64,000 nt of DNA, taken from the NCBI GenBank assembly GCA_964574415.1, contig CAZNNM010000005.1:130132-194131 (forward strand). The letters are read 5' to 3'. The DNA is from an uncultured Rickettsiales bacterium (lineage in GTDB: Bacteria; Pseudomonadota; Alphaproteobacteria; Rickettsiales; CAZNNM01). The stretch's first letter is position 1; each line of letters opens with the position of its first letter. Shown here piece after piece: positions 3,730 to 9,722 of this stretch. Under the pieces are notes generated by a model that saw only the letters and a program-made list of their open reading frames with translations, searched no databases and had not been told where the DNA came from. Both the position numbers and the translations under genes were made by a program.

Positions 3730-6336
3730 ATGAAGTTTGATATTTTTACAGAACGTTCTCGCGAATTGATCCAAGCCGCCCAAAGCCTGGCCGTGGCCAG
3801 AGGGCATCAGCGCTTTACCACCGAACATGTGCTACGTGCGCTTTTGGATGATGAAGAAGGGCTGACAGCCAATCTAATCAACGGTTGCGGGGCCAATCCT
3901 GGTGATATTAGCGACCAGTTAGACATGGCCCTCAAAAAACTCCCCGTCGTACAAGGCGCTGGCGCGGGGCAAATCTACCTGCTACCCGAAACCGCCCGTG
4001 CATTGGAAGAAGCGCAAAACATCGCCAAAAAAGAGCATGATAGTTTCGTCACCGTTGAACGCATTCTGCAAGGTCTTGCTATTCTTGATAAACAACACCC
4101 AACCCCAACGGCTACCATCCTCAATCAAGCAGGCGTAACCCCACAAAAACTCAATGAAGTGATTTCCGCCTTACGCAAGGGCCGCACAGCGCATTCGGCC
4201 ACAGCCGAAAGCCAGATGCAGGCGCTGAAGCGTTACGCTAAGGATATCACCGCCGCTGCGCGTGAAGGCAAGCTTGATCCGGTGATCGGCCGTGATGAAG
4301 AAATCCGCCGTGCGATGCAAGTGCTTTCGCGCCGGACTAAAAATAATCCTGTGCTTATCGGTGAACCAGGTGTCGGCAAAACAGCCATTGTCGAAGGCTT
4401 AGCGCTACGTATGGTGGCAGGCGATGTACCAGAAAATCTCAAAGACAAAAAACTCATGTCCCTTGACCTCGGCGCACTGATTGCTGGCGCCAAATTCCGT
4501 GGGGAATTTGAGGAACGGTTGAAATCCGTGCTATCCGAAGTCAATGCCTCCAATGGCGAGATTATTCTGTTCATCGATGAATTACACACATTAGTAGGCG
4601 CAGGTGCGGCGGAAGGGGCAATGGATGCCTCCAACCTCCTCAAACCCGCTCTAGCACGTGGTGAACTGCATTGCGTGGGCGCAACAACACTTGATGAATA
4701 CCGCAAACATATTGAAAAAGATGCCGCCCTGGCGCGTCGTTTCCAATCGGTGTTTGTGTCTGAGCCAACGGTGGAGGAAACCGTTTCTATTCTCCGTGGC
4801 CTGAAAGAGAAATACGAAGTGCATCATGGTATCCGCATTACCGATAGCGCCCTCGTCTCTGCCGCCACATTATCGCATCGTTATATCACCGACCGCTTCC
4901 TACCGGACAAAGCCATCGATTTGATTGATGAGGCAGCCAGCCGTTTGCGGATGGAAGTGGATAGCAAGCCGGAAGAAGTCGATGAACTCGACCGTAAAAT
5001 CATCCAGCTTAAAATTGAGGCAGAAGCTCTCAAGAAAGAGACGGATAAACCCTCACAAGACCGCCTCGAAAAGCTTACCAAAGAACTATCAGTCCTCGAA
5101 GAAAAATCTGCTGATTTGACCAGCAAATGGCAGGCAGAAAAAGCACGTCTACAAAACGCCCAAAAACTCAAAGAGCAATTAGACAAAGCCCGCAACGAAC
5201 TTGAAATTGCACAGCGCGGTGGAAATCTCGCACGTGCTGGGGAATTAACCTATGGTGTGATCCCAGACTTAGAGAAGAAACTCCAAGACGCCGAAGCCGC
5301 CTCAGGCAGTCGTATGTTGCAAGAAGCCGTGACGGAAGAAGATATCGCCAGCATCGTCTCCCGCTGGACAGGTATCCCTGTCGATAAAATGCTTGCTGGT
5401 GAACGCGAGAAATTGTTGAAGATGGAAGAGCATTTGCGCAGCACCGTCATCGGCCAAGACGATGCACTCCGCGCCATCAGCGATGCTGTCCGCCGCGCCC
5501 GCGCTGGCCTGCAAGATACCGACCGCCCACTCGGCTCCTTCCTGTTCTTAGGCCCGACAGGGGTTGGTAAAACCGAGCTGACCAAGGCATTGGCACAATT
5601 CATGTTTGATGACAAACAAGCCTTGCTGCGGATTGATATGTCAGAATACATGGAAAAGCACGCCGTAGCACGCCTCATCGGCGCGCCTCCAGGCTATGTG
5701 GGCTATGAAGAAGGTGGGACACTGACCGAAGCAGTACGCCGTCGCCCCTATCAGGTGATTCTGTTTGATGAAGTGGAAAAAGCCCATCCGGATGTGTTCA
5801 ACATCCTACTGCAAGTGCTCGATGAAGGTCGTCTCACCGATAGCCAAGGCCGCACGGTAGACTTCCGCAACACCGTTATCATCCTCACCTCCAACCTAGG
5901 TTCGGAAGTGCTTTCTGAGCAGAAAGAAGGCGAGGATAGCAGCCTGGTGCGTGAACAAGTGATGGAAGTCGTCCGCCGTGCTTTCCGCCCTGAGTTCCTC
6001 AACCGCTTGGATGAGATCATCCTCTTCCACCGTTTGGGCCGCAAGCATATGGATGCGATCGTCGATATCCAAATCGCCCGCCTGGCCAAAACCCTGGCAC
6101 CACGCCACATCACCCTACATCTAGACGACAAAGCCCGCACCTGGCTCGCCGAAGCCGGCTTCGACCCCATCTACGGCGCCCGCCCTCTCAAACGCGTTAT
6201 CCAGCGCGAATTGCAGAATAAACTGGCACAGAAGATTCTGGAGGGGAGTGTGAATGATGGGGATGTGGTGGAGGTGAGTGCGAATGAGACGGAGTTGGTG
6301 ATTTCGGTGGGAAGAACCAAAAAAAACGCAGCCTAG
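3730..6336 (+). CDS. clpB: ATP-dependent chaperone/disaggregase ClpB
   Basis: 868 aa with two AAA+ modules ([15 protein letters not shown] and [15 protein letters not shown]), a long coiled-coil middle domain and the Clp N domain. Confidence 0.97.
6184..6336 (+). repeat. direct repeat copy 1 (functional clpB 3' end), partner at 8899-9051
   Basis: Manual codon-by-codon alignment with 8899-9051. The two copies have the same length, and the 68-nt core 6217-6284 is identical to 8932-8999. Confidence 0.9.
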
Positions 6337-6400
6337 CTATTGATTTATATTAATTATCTCTGTACTTAAGAAAATAGTTGTATTTTATATTCATTAAGGT

Positions 6401-6445
6401 ATCATACGCCCATAAAGTTTAATTATTAACTTATGGGCGTATGAT
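6401..6445 (+). promoter_or_regulatory. perfect 15-bp inverted repeat abutting the start codon of the island operon
   Basis: atcatacgcccataa (6401-6415) pairs with ttatgggcgtatgat (6431-6445) across a 15-nt AT loop. The ATG of the next gene is at 6446. Confidence 0.6.
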
Positions 6446-7612
6446 ATGAGCACACAAAAGCACTTTCCCTCTGAATTAACAGAACGTTATACCGAAATAT
6501 TTACCTCACAAACTCAAGATACTCTGGTTTTTTGTGATCCTGGCATTGATGATGCATTAATGCTGGCACAGGTTCTCTCTTCTAAGAAATTGAATGTTCT
6601 TGGTATTGTACCTGGCGCTGGAAATGTTTCTCTTGATAAAACAATCGCTAACACATTGCGTATTGTAGAACTAACAGAACGTACAGATGTTAAAGTATAC
6701 CCAGGATGTAAAGCACCTATCGGCCAAAGCACTGAAAATATGCTTAATGGCGAACAAGTATACGGTGAAGATGGGCTTGGCGGCATTCCATTCAAAGCAC
6801 TTACCACACAAGCACAAACACAAGATGGTGTTGAATTTGCTGCAAATGCTATTCTTACAGCTAAAAAACCTATTACTCTTATTTCCACAGGCGGTTTGAC
6901 CGACGTATATCTCACTCTAGCAAAAATCAAAGAAATCAACCCAGCAGCATTAAAAAATATTGCTGGAATTTCTATTATGGGCGGTGTGTTTGATTATAAA
7001 GCAAATGCCAATGCACCATTACATGTAAATCCAGCAGACCGCGTTGCAGAATTTAATATGATCTTTGATCCTATTGCAACTAAAGGCGTATTCGATATTG
7101 CAGCAGAAGCACATATTACCATCTTGCTTGCTCCATTAGACCTAACCCACACTACCCTCTACCGCAAAGAAAAAGAAACCAAAGCACTTGGCGAAGTTGG
7201 CAACCCTGTTGCTACCGTCATGGCAGATTTGATGATGCAAGTGCCAGTATGGTATGAGGCACGTTTTGGTTTAGCAGATGGCGGTATGCAGCCTGCACAT
7301 GATGTGAATGCAAGCATGGCAATTCTGCACCCCGAGCTTTATACTGGCAGATGGGCCAATGTACGCTCTGTTCTGGATGGGACAGAAGTAGGCAAAACAT
7401 TTGAAGTTGATGGCGGCCCACAAAATGTGTGCATTCTGAATATTCCAGCAGAACGCAACGCAGGCTTCTTTACAGCATTTAATACTGATATGAAAGCATT
7501 TGATGCGCTCAAAGAAAAATCACATCTGCCTTCAGACCATAAGCCCAAAACTGCTCAAGACATTCTTACTCTTGGCAAAGGCAATACTTCTAGCTTTGCT
7601 CAAACACTGTAA
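6446..7612 (+). CDS. inosine-uridine-preferring nucleoside hydrolase (IUNH) family protein, variant motif, C-terminal extension
   Basis: LVFCDPGIDDALML corresponds to DxDxxxDD with the first Asp replaced by Phe. Also GEDGLGG, AEFNMIFDP and QPAHDVN, which align with RihA-type catalytic segments. Confidence 0.8.
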   Translation: MSTQKHFPSELTERYTEIFTSQTQDTLVFCDPGIDDALMLAQVLSSKKLNVLGIVPGAGNVSLDKTIANTLRIVELTERTDVKVYPGCKAPIGQSTENMLNGEQVYGEDGLGGIPFKALTTQAQTQDGVEFAANAILTAKKPITLISTGGLTDVYLTLAKIKEINPAALKNIAGISIMGGVFDYKANANAPLHVNPADRVAEFNMIFDPIATKGVFDIAAEAHITILLAPLDLTHTTLYRKEKETKALGEVGNPVATVMADLMMQVPVWYEARFGLADGGMQPAHDVNASMAILHPELYTGRWANVRSVLDGTEVGKTFEVDGGPQNVCILNIPAERNAGFFTAFNTDMKAFDALKEKSHLPSDHKPKTAQDILTLGKGNTSSFAQTL

Positions 7613-7633
7613 TATTTTTAAAAGGATACTATT

Positions 7634-8767
7634 ATGTCAAGACAACATTATGATTTAGTCATCAGCCTCATTGAAGAAGCAAAACAAGCGTTTATTTCTG
7701 GTGAAGGCACAACACCTGTTGTAGGTGATGTTGAACTTTTTACAAAAGAGGTGGATGGCAAGATCTATAAATTCTTTGGTATTGCGAAAGATAAGCAAGC
7801 CACAACTGATTACACAGCAGTGCGTAGCCATATTCTTCAAGAAATGGGATTAGCACAAGAAACTAGGACATTGCAAATCATTGGCGACTCTGCGCAATAC
7901 AACCCTGAACAATCCAAATTCATGCAGAAGTATTTCAACGAGAAAATGCAAAAATCATCACATGATGATGAATTAGTGATCTATGGTTATACAAGCCGTT
8001 ATAAAGACAACTCATCTGAGAAAACAAAAGGCAGAACAGAAGTAAATGGCTTGGTGAACTACTGGGTTGACCAAAACCCAGAACAAGCTAAACGTGTGCT
8101 AGCAAACGTGGTTTGCTTCCATACACGCCAAGCACTGACAGAAAGTGGCAAAGTTATGTCTGGCTCTACCACCGATAAAGGCTGGGGCTGTGATACATCT
8201 GAACATGTGACCAACTTTTTCCTGGTATATGATACAAAAGGAAAAGGAGCTACATTTGGTGATGACACCATTTCTTCAGATGAATTGACCGATAAATGCT
8301 ATACCTACGAAGGTGGCATCCAATCTTTCCGTCAAGGTGGCTATATGGCAAAACGCGGTAAGGAGCTTAAAGGTGTTTCTGGCCTGCGTGGCGAAAAAAA
8401 TGTTGGCTGTTTTGTTCCGCAAGAAGATGCCTATAGAATATTCTTCTCAGCACCTGAATTCTTTGCTCTTCTGCAAGCGCGTACAGCTGCAAAAGGCTCT
8501 GAGTTAACCCCTGACGAGGTAACCACCATTCGTGATGAATATGTTGCAACAAACTACCAAGATGCACTTGCAGATAAATCACGCCGCGTATTAACAAACC
8601 CACATCGCGATGATGCTGCAACCAAAGATGGCTTATTCAAAGAAGGCTGGGCTGATTTGATGAAAGAGGAGGGCTATAAAGCTGTACAACAACACTTTAA
8701 AGGTAAAACCTTTGAAGAGTTAGTAGCTAAGACGGCGGCTAAAACATCAGCCACACAAAGCCTCTAA
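7634..8767 (+). CDS. hypothetical protein (orphan), co-transcribed with the nucleoside hydrolase
   Basis: 377-aa ORF starting 22 nt after the upstream stop, with an AAGGA Shine-Dalgarno and followed by an intrinsic terminator. No family recognised. There is a weak Rossmann/SLOG-like pattern (ELVIYGYTS ... KCYTYEGGIQSFRQGG). Confidence 0.7.
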   Translation: MSRQHYDLVISLIEEAKQAFISGEGTTPVVGDVELFTKEVDGKIYKFFGIAKDKQATTDYTAVRSHILQEMGLAQETRTLQIIGDSAQYNPEQSKFMQKYFNEKMQKSSHDDELVIYGYTSRYKDNSSEKTKGRTEVNGLVNYWVDQNPEQAKRVLANVVCFHTRQALTESGKVMSGSTTDKGWGCDTSEHVTNFFLVYDTKGKGATFGDDTISSDELTDKCYTYEGGIQSFRQGGYMAKRGKELKGVSGLRGEKNVGCFVPQEDAYRIFFSAPEFFALLQARTAAKGSELTPDEVTTIRDEYVATNYQDALADKSRRVLTNPHRDDAATKDGLFKEGWADLMKEEGYKAVQQHFKGKTFEELVAKTAAKTSATQSL

Positions 8768-8792
8768 TACTCTTTTCTCATTGATGTTAAGG

Positions 8793-8825
8793 AAGCGCTC
8801 AGAAATTTTTCTGAGCGCTTTTTTT
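8793..8825 (+). terminator. rho-independent terminator of the island operon
   Basis: aagcgctcag / ctgagcgctt 10-bp stem, 8-nt loop, followed by a T-run. Confidence 0.8.
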
Positions 8826-8840
8826 ACAGTATACATTCCT

Positions 8841-8870
8841 TCTTATCTTATCTTATCTTATCTTATCTTT
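8841..8870. repeat. pentanucleotide microsatellite (TCTTA)x5 plus degenerate units
   Basis: tctta repeated five times at 8841-8865, then tcttt, tctcc and tcttg. Confidence 0.9.
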
Positions 8871-8898
8871 TCTCCTCTTGCTCAACATACAAAAAATA

Positions 8899-9051
8899 CC
8901 CCTCAAACGCGTTATCCAACGTGAGCTGCAAAATAAACTGGCACAGAAGATTCTGGAGGGGAGTGTGAATGATGGGGATGTGGTGGAGGTGAGTGCGAAG
9001 GAGGCGGGATTGGTGATTGCGGTGAGGAGAACGACGGCGAAGGTGGCGTAA
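8899..9051 (+). pseudogene. orphaned clpB 3' end fragment (last 50 codons plus stop)
   Basis: Translates to [50 protein letters not shown], colinear with the ClpB C-terminus. There is no upstream ORF in frame. Confidence 0.85.
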
Positions 9052-9101: not shown

Positions 9102-9494
9102 CTAGGCCTTGGCGCCTACTTTCCGTAACCAGTCACCCAATTGCTCTTCTGTCACTTCACCGGCTGCAAGCCTATAGAAGACAGCGTATTTTTCCTCTTG
9201 TGAAGCCTGTACAGTATAACCGTTTAGTCGTAAAAACAAACAGCACACCACAAATACAGTCCGTTTATTACCATCCATAAAAGGATGATTGCGTGCTATG
9301 CCATAGGCATAGGCAGCCGCGAGCGCCATTATATCAATACCCGCGCCGCCATAATAATAAGTATTCTTGGGCTTATTAAGTGCGGAATCTAATAAGCCTG
9401 CATCGCGCACACCATCTAAGCCACCATGTTCAGCAAGCTGTCTGCGGTGAATAGCAAGCACAACCTCATCAAGCACCCATATCGGTTCCTGCAT
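9102..9494 (-). CDS. doc: Doc (death-on-curing) family Fic-fold toxin
   Basis: The HPFMDGNKRT motif matches the Doc-type Fic motif HxFxDGNKR. The gene is 130 aa and lies 3 nt downstream of a small antitoxin gene. Confidence 0.85.
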   Translation of the reverse strand: MQEPIWVLDEVVLAIHRRQLAEHGGLDGVRDAGLLDSALNKPKNTYYYGGAGIDIMALAAAYAYGIARNHPFMDGNKRTVFVVCCLFLRLNGYTVQASQEEKYAVFYRLAAGEVTEEQLGDWLRKVGAKA

Positions 9495-9497
9495 GGT

Positions 9498-9722
9498 CTA
9501 TTCTGCCAACTTCTTCAATACATCACGATTATCATGCATAATCTGCTCTGCCATATCCATTTGTGATGCGAATTCAGGATTATAGGCTGTGAACTCTATA
9601 CCATTTGGAGTTTCCACAGCATATAACGCATCCCCCTTTTCAACACGCAATTTTGCAAGCACTTCTCTGGGTAAAATCACCCCTAAAGAATTACCAATCG
9701 CCGTCACTTTAATTAATGCCAT
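9498..9722 (-). CDS. AbrB/MazE/SpoVT-family antitoxin
   Basis: 74 aa. N-terminal IKVTAIGNSLGVILPREVLAKLRVEKGD is a looped-hinge-helix (SpoVT-AbrB) signature. Operon partner of doc. Confidence 0.8.
   Translation of the reverse strand: MALIKVTAIGNSLGVILPREVLAKLRVEKGDALYAVETPNGIEFTAYNPEFASQMDMAEQIMHDNRDVLKKLAE

Follow-up and report, generated by a model that had tools for sequence, protein, structure and literature searches.

The MHR1/2 region of TRPM ion channels belongs to the LSDAT family of SLOG domains and, in TRPM2, has a site at which ADP-ribose (ADPR) binds (PMC13143021). The SLOG domain of ThsA, the effector of the Thoeris system, binds cyclic ADPR isomers (PMC9503650). XopQ, a protein with the IUNH fold (Pfam family PF01156) that had for a long time been regarded as a nucleoside hydrolase, cleaves 2'-cyclic ADPR (2'cADPR) to ADPR, and this cleavage blocks TIR signalling and type VI Thoeris (bioRxiv 10.64898/2026.06.15.732069, a preprint of June 2026). 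Here we report on a two-gene cassette in which an IUNH-fold protein is encoded directly ahead of a protein of 377 amino acids (aa) whose modelled structure is closest to TRPM MHR1/2. The cassette lies in a 64,000-nucleotide (nt) stretch of contig CAZNNM010000005.1 (assembly GCA_964574415.1, positions 130,132 to 194,131) from an uncultured Rickettsiales bacterium; we refer to this whole stretch as the window and number positions from its first letter. Relatives of the two proteins recur as fusions and as neighbouring genes in distant lineages, and a physical or functional coupling of the two products is, in our judgement, very probable. The genes and the sequence between them are as follows.

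6446-7612, plus strand: gene 1, predicted IUNH-fold ribosyl hydrolase of 388 aa (list of open reading frames (ORFs) and Pfam PF01156)
7622-7626, plus strand: Shine-Dalgarno sequence AAGGA of gene 2, inside the spacer and 7 nt 5' of the ATG (direct sequence reading)
7634-8767, plus strand: gene 2, 377-aa protein with a predicted SLOG-superfamily, TRPM MHR1/2-like fold (AlphaFold2 and Foldseek)

Both ORFs, their coordinates, their close spacing and the Shine-Dalgarno sequence are as given by the initial annotation, which was made from the letters of the window. Its call of a tight two-gene operon is likewise upheld by the 21-nt spacer, the Shine-Dalgarno sequence and the single terminator behind the pair.

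Folds of the two gene products

Sequence comparison does not place the gene 2 product in any family, which is what the initial annotation had said of it, and the motifs quoted there are all present in the translation. Searches of Pfam (at E ≤ 1), NCBIfam, PADLOC, PHROGs and PDB sequences returned no match, and no well-characterised housekeeping family was among the results. None of the SLOG-type Pfam families (LSDAT_prok, LSDAT_euk, Lysine_decarbox and others) is matched at E ≤ 0.01 by any of 60 members of the gene 2 family, and a profile of these 60 members finds nothing among PDB sequences at E ≤ 10. An AlphaFold2 model of the protein, built with the 60-member alignment, has a pLDDT of 94.6 and a pTM of 0.92. 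When this model is compared with the PDB by Foldseek, the top 50 matches are all TRPM MHR1/2 regions (TRPM2, 3, 4, 5, 7 and 8), with E values from 6e-7 to 5e-5, a probability of 1.00 and 340-400 aligned columns. An independent AlphaFold2 model of P0029, a 720-aa natural fusion of both modules, gives the same assignment: its C-terminal half finds TRPM MHR1/2 and its N-terminal half finds RihA/YeiK. The faint SLOG/LOG-type resemblance that had been suspected from one sequence motif is thus borne out by two independent models, and on their evidence the gene 2 product is a predicted member of the SLOG superfamily, closest to the TRPM MHR1/2 domain.

Most of the conserved residues of the family sit at the C-terminal ends of predicted strands. 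Invariant or nearly invariant are G84-D85-S86, G118 and T120, N138, N158, F208-G-D-D211, S215-D216, G227-G228-x-Q230-S231-x-x-Q234, R252, and K331 in a C-terminal helix. The G84-D-S motif follows the strand at 78-84, G118-x-T120-(G) follows that at 113-118, and E-G227-G228-x-Q-S-x-x-Q234 follows that at 221-225. In the model these strand-end residues form a predicted ligand site, as expected for a Rossmann-like fold, and the protein probably binds a ligand of nucleotide type. The segment EGGIQSFRQ resembles the SLOG signature PGGxGTxxE, the two being equated by motif order and not by superposition. The terminal Glu of this signature is catalytic in LOG enzymes; the position equated with it is Gln (Q234) in 98% of the 60 aligned members, the window protein included. 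On balance we lean towards a gene 2 product that is non-catalytic in the LOG sense.

Gene 1 is readily classified. It matches Pfam IU_nuc_hydro (PF01156) at E 7.1e-54 over residues 28-328 (183.9 bits against a cut-off of 34.2), and its nearest solved structures are those of E. coli RihA/YbeK (PDB 1yoe and 3g5i, E 1.6e-31). Alignment with RihA confirms that gene 1 encodes a variant of the family, as had been proposed: RihA LLDCDPGHDDA corresponds to LVFCDPGIDDA, with Phe in place of the first Asp of the motif, and HGESGLDG corresponds to YGEDGLGG, with Tyr at the position of RihA His82. Three of the four Asp residues of the DxDxxxDD cluster, which supplies the general base and the Ca2+ and ribose ligands of these enzymes, are therefore kept (FCDPGIDD), with D31 as the presumed general base. 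Since the first Asp of the IUNH cluster is not known to be a direct Ca2+ ligand, hydrolase activity is likely to be retained despite the change to Phe. The AEFN motif, which holds the ribose-binding ExN, is identical to that of RihA, and PAHD aligns with RihA PLHD, so that the group I His-Asp pair is present; judged by these residues, the product is probably an active Ca2+-dependent ribosyl hydrolase. At the same time it does not reach the NCBIfam equivalog cut-off of any named enzyme: it scores 137 bits against the 433 needed for RihA, 124 against 382 for RihC, 101 against 459 for the RihB type, and 14.7 against 500 for the XopQ model NF041355. PADLOC has no match for it, and PHROGs offers an unannotated IUNH-like family only.

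The deviations from RihA are not peculiar to the window. The IUNH domain of the fusion P0029 carries the same ones (VFCDPGVDDA, VYGD, SEFN and PLHD), and the substitutions common to the two therefore mark a SLOG-linked subgroup of IUNH proteins, which we call type A. Gene 1 has in addition an N-terminal extension of 20-25 aa and a C-terminal tail. The existence of this tail, which had been put at about 60 aa, is confirmed, though no more than about 38 aa (351-388) extend past the region conserved with P0029, where by alignment this tail corresponds to the linker between the two halves.

Linkage of the SLOG module and its possible function

When 5.8 billion proteins were searched by word index, only five clusters of the family to which gene 2 belongs came up. 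Exhaustive phmmer over 1.84 billion cluster representatives, by contrast, gave 166 matches at E ≤ 1e-3, which put the family at about 166 clusters (at 50% identity); 27 of them reach E ≤ 1e-30. Within this family the gene 2 module is repeatedly joined to two kinds of enzyme. A Pfam scan of the 60 members showed four fused to IU_nuc_hydro and four to AAA_28, a P-loop domain of the NadR ribosylnicotinamide-kinase type. Purpose-built hidden Markov models raised these numbers, in 152 representatives, to 12 IUNH fusions and nine AAA_28 fusions, with both domain orders represented. The match of the AAA_28 domain to the nicotinamide-riboside kinase domain of NadR is full-length and weak (E 1.5e-3). 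Separate neighbouring genes are also found: an IUNH gene lies 3' of the SLOG gene, in the reverse of the window order, in a Parachlamydia metagenome-assembled genome (MAG) (locus L005, JAJFUZ010000191.1), another lies 5' of the SLOG gene with a 14-nt overlap on a metagenome contig (L016), and in L034 the gene for an AAA_28 kinase stops 3 nt short of the SLOG gene. The initial annotation had left open whether homologs of the 377-aa protein co-occur with IUNH genes in other genomes; they do, and some are fused to them.

Two features of this linkage are informative. The first is that the linked IUNH proteins belong to two clades that differ greatly, type A with FCDPG...HD and type B with TDxGSVDPDD...GYNW...CD; the IUNH proteins of the window and of L005 share about 20% identity, and only in a local match of 134 residues. 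The association therefore seems to have arisen more than once. The second is the collinearity of the window pair with P0029: gene 1 residues 18-350 align with P0029 residues 46-367 (40% identity, E 2e-67) and gene 2 residues 7-352 with P0029 residues 373-694 (30% identity, E 4e-42), so that the window operon is the split form of that protein. In two further fusions, P0070 and P0134, the IUNH half has lost the Asp cluster and the (H/C)D motif and the SLOG half is conserved, which makes the SLOG module appear to be the constant functional core. These observations also bear on the plainest account of the locus, namely that an ordinary pyrimidine nucleoside salvage enzyme has come to lie beside an unrelated or decaying gene. 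RihA is indeed the best named match of gene 1. However, fusions and adjacencies of SLOG and IUNH modules recur across distant lineages, both ORFs of the window are intact with all family-invariant residues kept, and the pair is absent from a close relative. Coincidence is strongly disfavoured by the fusions above all, and we regard it as hardly credible.

We tentatively favour a mechanism in which ligand binding by the SLOG protein gates or feeds the ribosyl hydrolase. Genes 1 and 2 would be the separated halves of a recurrent two-module protein, both made from one transcript and most likely joined in a complex. The SLOG subunit would bind a ligand containing ribose phosphate at its conserved polar strand-end residues and would either gate the hydrolase or present the substrate to it, and the IUNH hydrolase would then cleave the ribosyl bond. 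The likeliest class of ligand would be molecules derived from nicotinamide adenine dinucleotide (NAD) or ADPR, because of the ADPR site of TRPM2 MHR1/2, the SLOG domain of ThsA, the activity of XopQ, the NadR-like alternative partner and an ADP-ribosyltransferase gene next to one member of the family; this assignment is possible and a little less secure than the mechanism itself. Biologically, the pair would serve to turn over or destroy a metabolite or signal of this kind, in a lineage that gained the cassette horizontally, and that this happens in conflict or counter-immunity is somewhat doubtful. The most general version of the proposal is that the pairing of SLOG with IUNH or with a NadR-like kinase is a module that captures ADP-ribose-type signals, derived from TIR proteins or NADases, and then destroys or recycles them, and that the family consists of soluble TRPM-melastatin-like SLOG proteins in giant viruses, chlamydiae and other bacteria. 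Stated in that breadth we consider it unlikely.

Several observations weigh against the favoured mechanism. The TM-scores of the matches between the gene 2 model and TRPM structures are moderate (TMq 0.36-0.48), and a sequence-level link of gene 2 to SLOG Pfam models or PDB chains was not found. The AlphaFold2 model of the fusion P0029 has a pTM of 0.59 with its IUNH half poorly modelled, the alignment being shallow, and this model lends no support to a fixed interface between the halves. Gene 1 scores far closer to the pyrimidine nucleosidase RihA than to XopQ; an ordinary nucleoside is a possible substrate, because the protein keeps the His-Asp pair typical of N-glycosidic cleavage. The great majority of family representatives (126 of 152) are stand-alone proteins with highly varied neighbours, so the SLOG protein must also be able to act without an IUNH partner. 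Finally, the bacterium of the window looks like an ordinary flagellated, chemotactic alphaproteobacterium and not obviously like an intracellular parasite.

The choice of partners fits another reading as well, in which the gene 2 product is itself an enzyme. It would be a LOG/PpnN-like N-glycosidase acting on a 5'-phosphorylated, possibly modified, nucleoside, with the IUNH protein acting on the unphosphorylated form; where a NadR-like kinase takes the place of the hydrolase, a nucleoside would be converted to a nucleotide and then to the free base. The point of such a route would be to salvage or activate a free base, queuine or a base of the cytokinin type for example. SLOG enzymes of the LOG clade do cleave nucleotide N-glycosidic bonds (PMC9503650), a nucleoside hydrolase and a nucleoside-type kinase would be alternative partners for one family of substrates, and the conserved D85, N158, D211, D216 and Q230 could support catalysis. 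In L005 (90-5325) the pair moreover lies 1.6 kb from genes for a queuosine-precursor transporter (Vut_1/YhhQ) and tRNA-guanine transglycosylase (TGT), although this is a single locus, the queuosine genes form a different operon and an ATPase_2 gene stands between on the opposite strand. The nearly universal Gln at the position equated with the LOG Glu speaks against such an activity, as does the fact that the nearest solved structures are the non-catalytic sensor domains of TRPM channels and not LOG or PpnN, and we therefore consider release of a base by gene 2 rather unlikely.

The distribution of the family bears on the biological role under the favoured, ligand-gated mechanism. Members from named sources come from Parachlamydia and Chlamydiales MAGs and from Terrestrivirus, a giant virus that infects amoebae (Foldseek against BFVD, E 3e-19, 26% identity). 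The contigs and contexts of family members include HECT, ankyrin-repeat and papain-like genes, an F-box fusion, PolX, TraD, collagen/BclA and a TcdA/B-like glycosyltransferase, and the distribution as a whole points to microbes associated with eukaryotic hosts. Nucleotide-related neighbours recur, among them a SKI-like kinase, an adenylate kinase, an APH-like kinase and a Metallophos phosphoesterase. In L011 (MAG CAYWZU010000001.1, 5662-9413) a SLOG-AAA_28 fusion is divergent from a gene for a XopAI-like ADP-ribosyltransferase (ADPrib_exo_Tox); a HAD_SAK_2 gene lies near this fusion. Three unrelated loci (L031, L017 and L001) have a GerE/LuxR-type regulator no more than a few kb from the SLOG gene; only in L031 is it adjacent, and there it is divergent. 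In L032 (1683-14798) the gene for the closest homolog of gene 2, P0006 (35% identity), has on one side a gene for a 2091-aa WD40/pentapeptide-repeat protein and on the other a gene for an 1824-aa protein; the three genes are co-directional with gaps of about 50 nt and look like a larger system of their own.

A special case of the favoured mechanism is suggested by this distribution: that the pair, or the fusions, are exported factors for counter-immunity or host manipulation, which destroy NAD-derived immune signals in a eukaryotic or bacterial host in the manner of XopQ, and that the window copy is a transferred instance of such a module. The members in Parachlamydia, Chlamydiales MAGs and Terrestrivirus are consistent with this, as are those on contigs with HECT, ankyrin, F-box, PolX, collagen/BclA and TcdA/B-like genes, the XopAI-like gene next to the L011 fusion, the precedent of XopQ (bioRxiv 10.64898/2026.06.15.732069) and the prediction that viral SLOG domains degrade ADPR-type signals (PMC9503650). 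However, the window was found to hold neither a secretion signal nor a secretion system, its host has the look of a free-living organism, and the window IUNH protein and three other linked ones (from P0058, L005 and L016) are unlike XopQ in sequence, so that export of this kind is decidedly unlikely.

The initial annotation had thought a role in defence, conflict or signalling plausible. In a system for phage defence the SLOG protein would sense a signal nucleotide during abortive infection and switch on the IUNH protein as an effector that depletes nucleosides or nucleotides. The coupling of a SLOG sensor with an enzymatic effector is established in Thoeris (PMC9503650), the cassette was horizontally acquired, and the position of P0006 between two giant proteins, one of them with many WD40 and pentapeptide repeats, recalls conflict systems. 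An anti-phage role is otherwise unsupported by the findings. PADLOC has no match for either protein, no TIR, cyclase or other signal generator is present in the insert itself or near the homologs (about 20 neighbourhoods), and no copies of the family were found in the plasmid, phage and IMG/VR collections. The flanks of the cassette are housekeeping genes with no defence-island context, and nucleoside hydrolysis would be a weak suicide activity. We consider a role in abortive infection very unlikely.

The cassette and its insertion behind clpB

The pair is framed by two RNA elements, and its insert by copies of the end of a housekeeping gene.

6184-6336, plus strand: left copy of the clpB 3' end, which completes the functional clpB (3730-6336) and bounds the insert on the left (direct repeat)
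6400-6446, plus strand: leader hairpin with perfect 16-bp arms (6400-6415 and 6431-6446) and a 15-nt loop (inverted repeat, 100% complementary)
8785-8828, plus strand: intrinsic terminator of the two-gene operon, arms 8785-8805 and 8808-8828 (inverted repeat and fold)
8841-8879, no strand: pentanucleotide run (TCTTA)n at the right insert junction (direct repeat family and sequence)
8899-9051, plus strand: right copy of the clpB 3' end, a displaced remnant and right boundary of the insert (direct repeat)
9102-9494, minus strand: Doc/Fic toxin, downstream of clpB
9498-9722, minus strand: MazE/AbrB-type antitoxin, next to the Doc toxin

The 3' arm of the leader hairpin spans the likely ribosome-binding region of gene 1 and ends on the A of its start codon; the fold around it has z = -4.65. 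Rfam gives generic microRNA-like and hairpin matches only for this element, with no known riboswitch among them. A riboswitch in the leader was considered and rejected, since across the whole window (positions 1-64000) Rfam gives nothing at gathering score, be it a tRNA, an rRNA, a riboswitch or a small RNA. The terminator consists of a 16-bp core stem with three outer pairs and a following U-run, and its fold (-25.3 kcal/mol, z = -6.44) was equalled by none of 200 shuffles; a plain consensus terminator scan missed it. Both the hairpin at the start codon and the strong terminator had been proposed from the letters of the window, and the inverted repeats and folds agree with that. The two proteins of the cassette end alike, in ...NTSSFAQTL (7586-7609) and ...KTSATQSL (8741-8764), and such tails were not seen in the homologs inspected; they could be a common targeting, secretion or degradation signal, or due to chance.

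The horizontal origin of the pair, claimed in the initial annotation, stands on three observations: a drop in GC content (about 0.41 across the insert, roughly 6300-8900, against about 0.51 outside), the duplicated 3' end of clpB, and the absence of the pair from a related genome. The clpB direct repeat extends over 134 nt at 90% identity with an identical core of about 68 nt, and the right copy leaves a 57-aa ORF (8878-9051) that matches ClpB_D2-small. Between the copies lies an insert of about 2.7 kb with genes 1 and 2 as its only gene content. Of the features of an integrative island, flanking direct repeats and an empty site in a relative are seen; no integrase, transposase or other mobility gene is found among the ORFs within 6337-8898. 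The pattern of the clpB duplication fits the entry, by a single crossover of the Campbell type, of a small circular molecule with a 3' fragment of clpB on it; comparison with the relative favours neither copy as the native one. A Logan contig (L008) is identical to window positions 6255-8961 (100%) and ends inside the clpB repeat.

The empty site is provided by two contigs of a related organism (L014 and L015), whose ClpB proteins fall in the same 90%-identity cluster as that of the window and whose DNA is 82-90% identical to it. Their gene order is clpB, a Fic/Doc gene, its antitoxin, mreC, mreB, fliL and fliM, without the cassette. Because clpB stands directly before the Doc pair in this genome, the cassette is a genuine insert, and its cargo does not include Doc. 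We thus rejected Doc as island cargo, a correction to the initial annotation, which had the cassette in an acquired insert next to a Doc toxin-antitoxin pair: the Doc genes are a neighbour only, lying beyond the repeats that bound the insert and occupying the same place in the relative. The Doc pair is older than the insert; the toxins of the window and of the relatives are syntenic with 42% identity, and the Doc slot is conserved with an occupant that is fast-evolving or replaced. The absence of the cassette from this close relative also speaks against a conserved salvage operon of the core genome. The remainder of the window is ordinary chromosome, with genes for PBP2, RodA, citrate synthase, CheA, GroEL, ProRS, UvrC and SerRS. 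Among named organisms, the best matches to its ClpB have 73-74% identity.

Comparison with known systems

A description of the gene 2 family, or of the association of SLOG with IUNH or NadR-like kinase modules, was not found in the searchable literature. The superfamily is known, as is the logic of joining a nucleotide-binding SLOG protein to a nucleotide-processing enzyme, and the cassette is no new category of system. Its interest is that a protein family unmatched by Pfam, NCBIfam, PADLOC and PHROGs models gains a fold assignment together with a set of Rosetta-stone partners. The SLOG domains of ThsA and TRPM2 and the IUNH fold of XopQ handle molecules derived from NAD or ADPR, and their repeated fusion poses the question of the ligand directly. 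Should the ligand be a TIR-type signal, the family would represent a new module of counter-immunity or signal turnover in giant viruses, chlamydiae and free-living bacteria.

Among enzymes with the fold of gene 1, RihA/YbeK and RihB/YeiK are the best sequence matches, with the Asp cluster, AEFN and His-Asp conserved. Gene 1 differs from them in its Phe and Tyr substitutions, its N- and C-terminal extensions, its link to a SLOG module and in being acquired and not part of the core genome. XopQ/HopQ1, a type III effector, shares the PF01156 fold and the Ca2+/Asp machinery; it has no SLOG partner, and its substrate has been assayed, whereas the window enzyme is known from its sequence. If the cassette is a signal-destroying module, it would extend the XopQ strategy to a two-component form. 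The kinase domain of NadR (AAA_28) is the alternative partner of the SLOG module, in nine fusions and one adjacent gene, and like IUNH enzymes it acts on ribonucleosides; AAA_28 is not present in the window, and the similarity of the linked domains to true NadR is weak.

Gene 2 is related to the LOG/PpnN enzymes as a predicted member of the same superfamily, with a motif order of GxS, GxxG and then EGGxQSxxQ, and the bonds that LOG/PpnN enzymes break, ribosyl N-glycosidic ones, are of the kind attacked by canonical IUNH enzymes. It differs from them in the Gln that stands for the signature Glu, in the lack of a Pfam Lysine_decarbox match and in an extra N-terminal beta-meander and C-terminal helical parts. 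ThsA, the SIR2-SLOG protein of type I Thoeris, resembles the pair in joining a SLOG module to an enzyme whose substrates are nucleotides. The window pair has neither SIR2 nor a TIR partner nor a PADLOC match, its effector would be an IUNH-fold hydrolase, and among the structural matches listed gene 2 is closer to the TRPM type than to ThsA.

The TRPM MHR1/2 domain is the best structural match of all, covering nearly the whole of the 377 aa with a Rossmann-like core and loops at the strand ends. In contrast to it, gene 2 encodes a predicted soluble protein without a channel, with about 11% identity and no match to the Pfam LSDAT families, and its family is found in bacteria and giant viruses, where its partners are IUNH proteins or a NadR-like kinase in place of an ion channel or NUDT9-H. 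If the family does form a module that captures ADP-ribose-type signals, it would be a prokaryotic or viral relative of the TRPM ligand-sensing domain with an identifiable ligand. The family also provides a small and soluble model of MHR1/2, a region of TRPM channels that is poorly understood, and a clue to its pre-eukaryotic origin.

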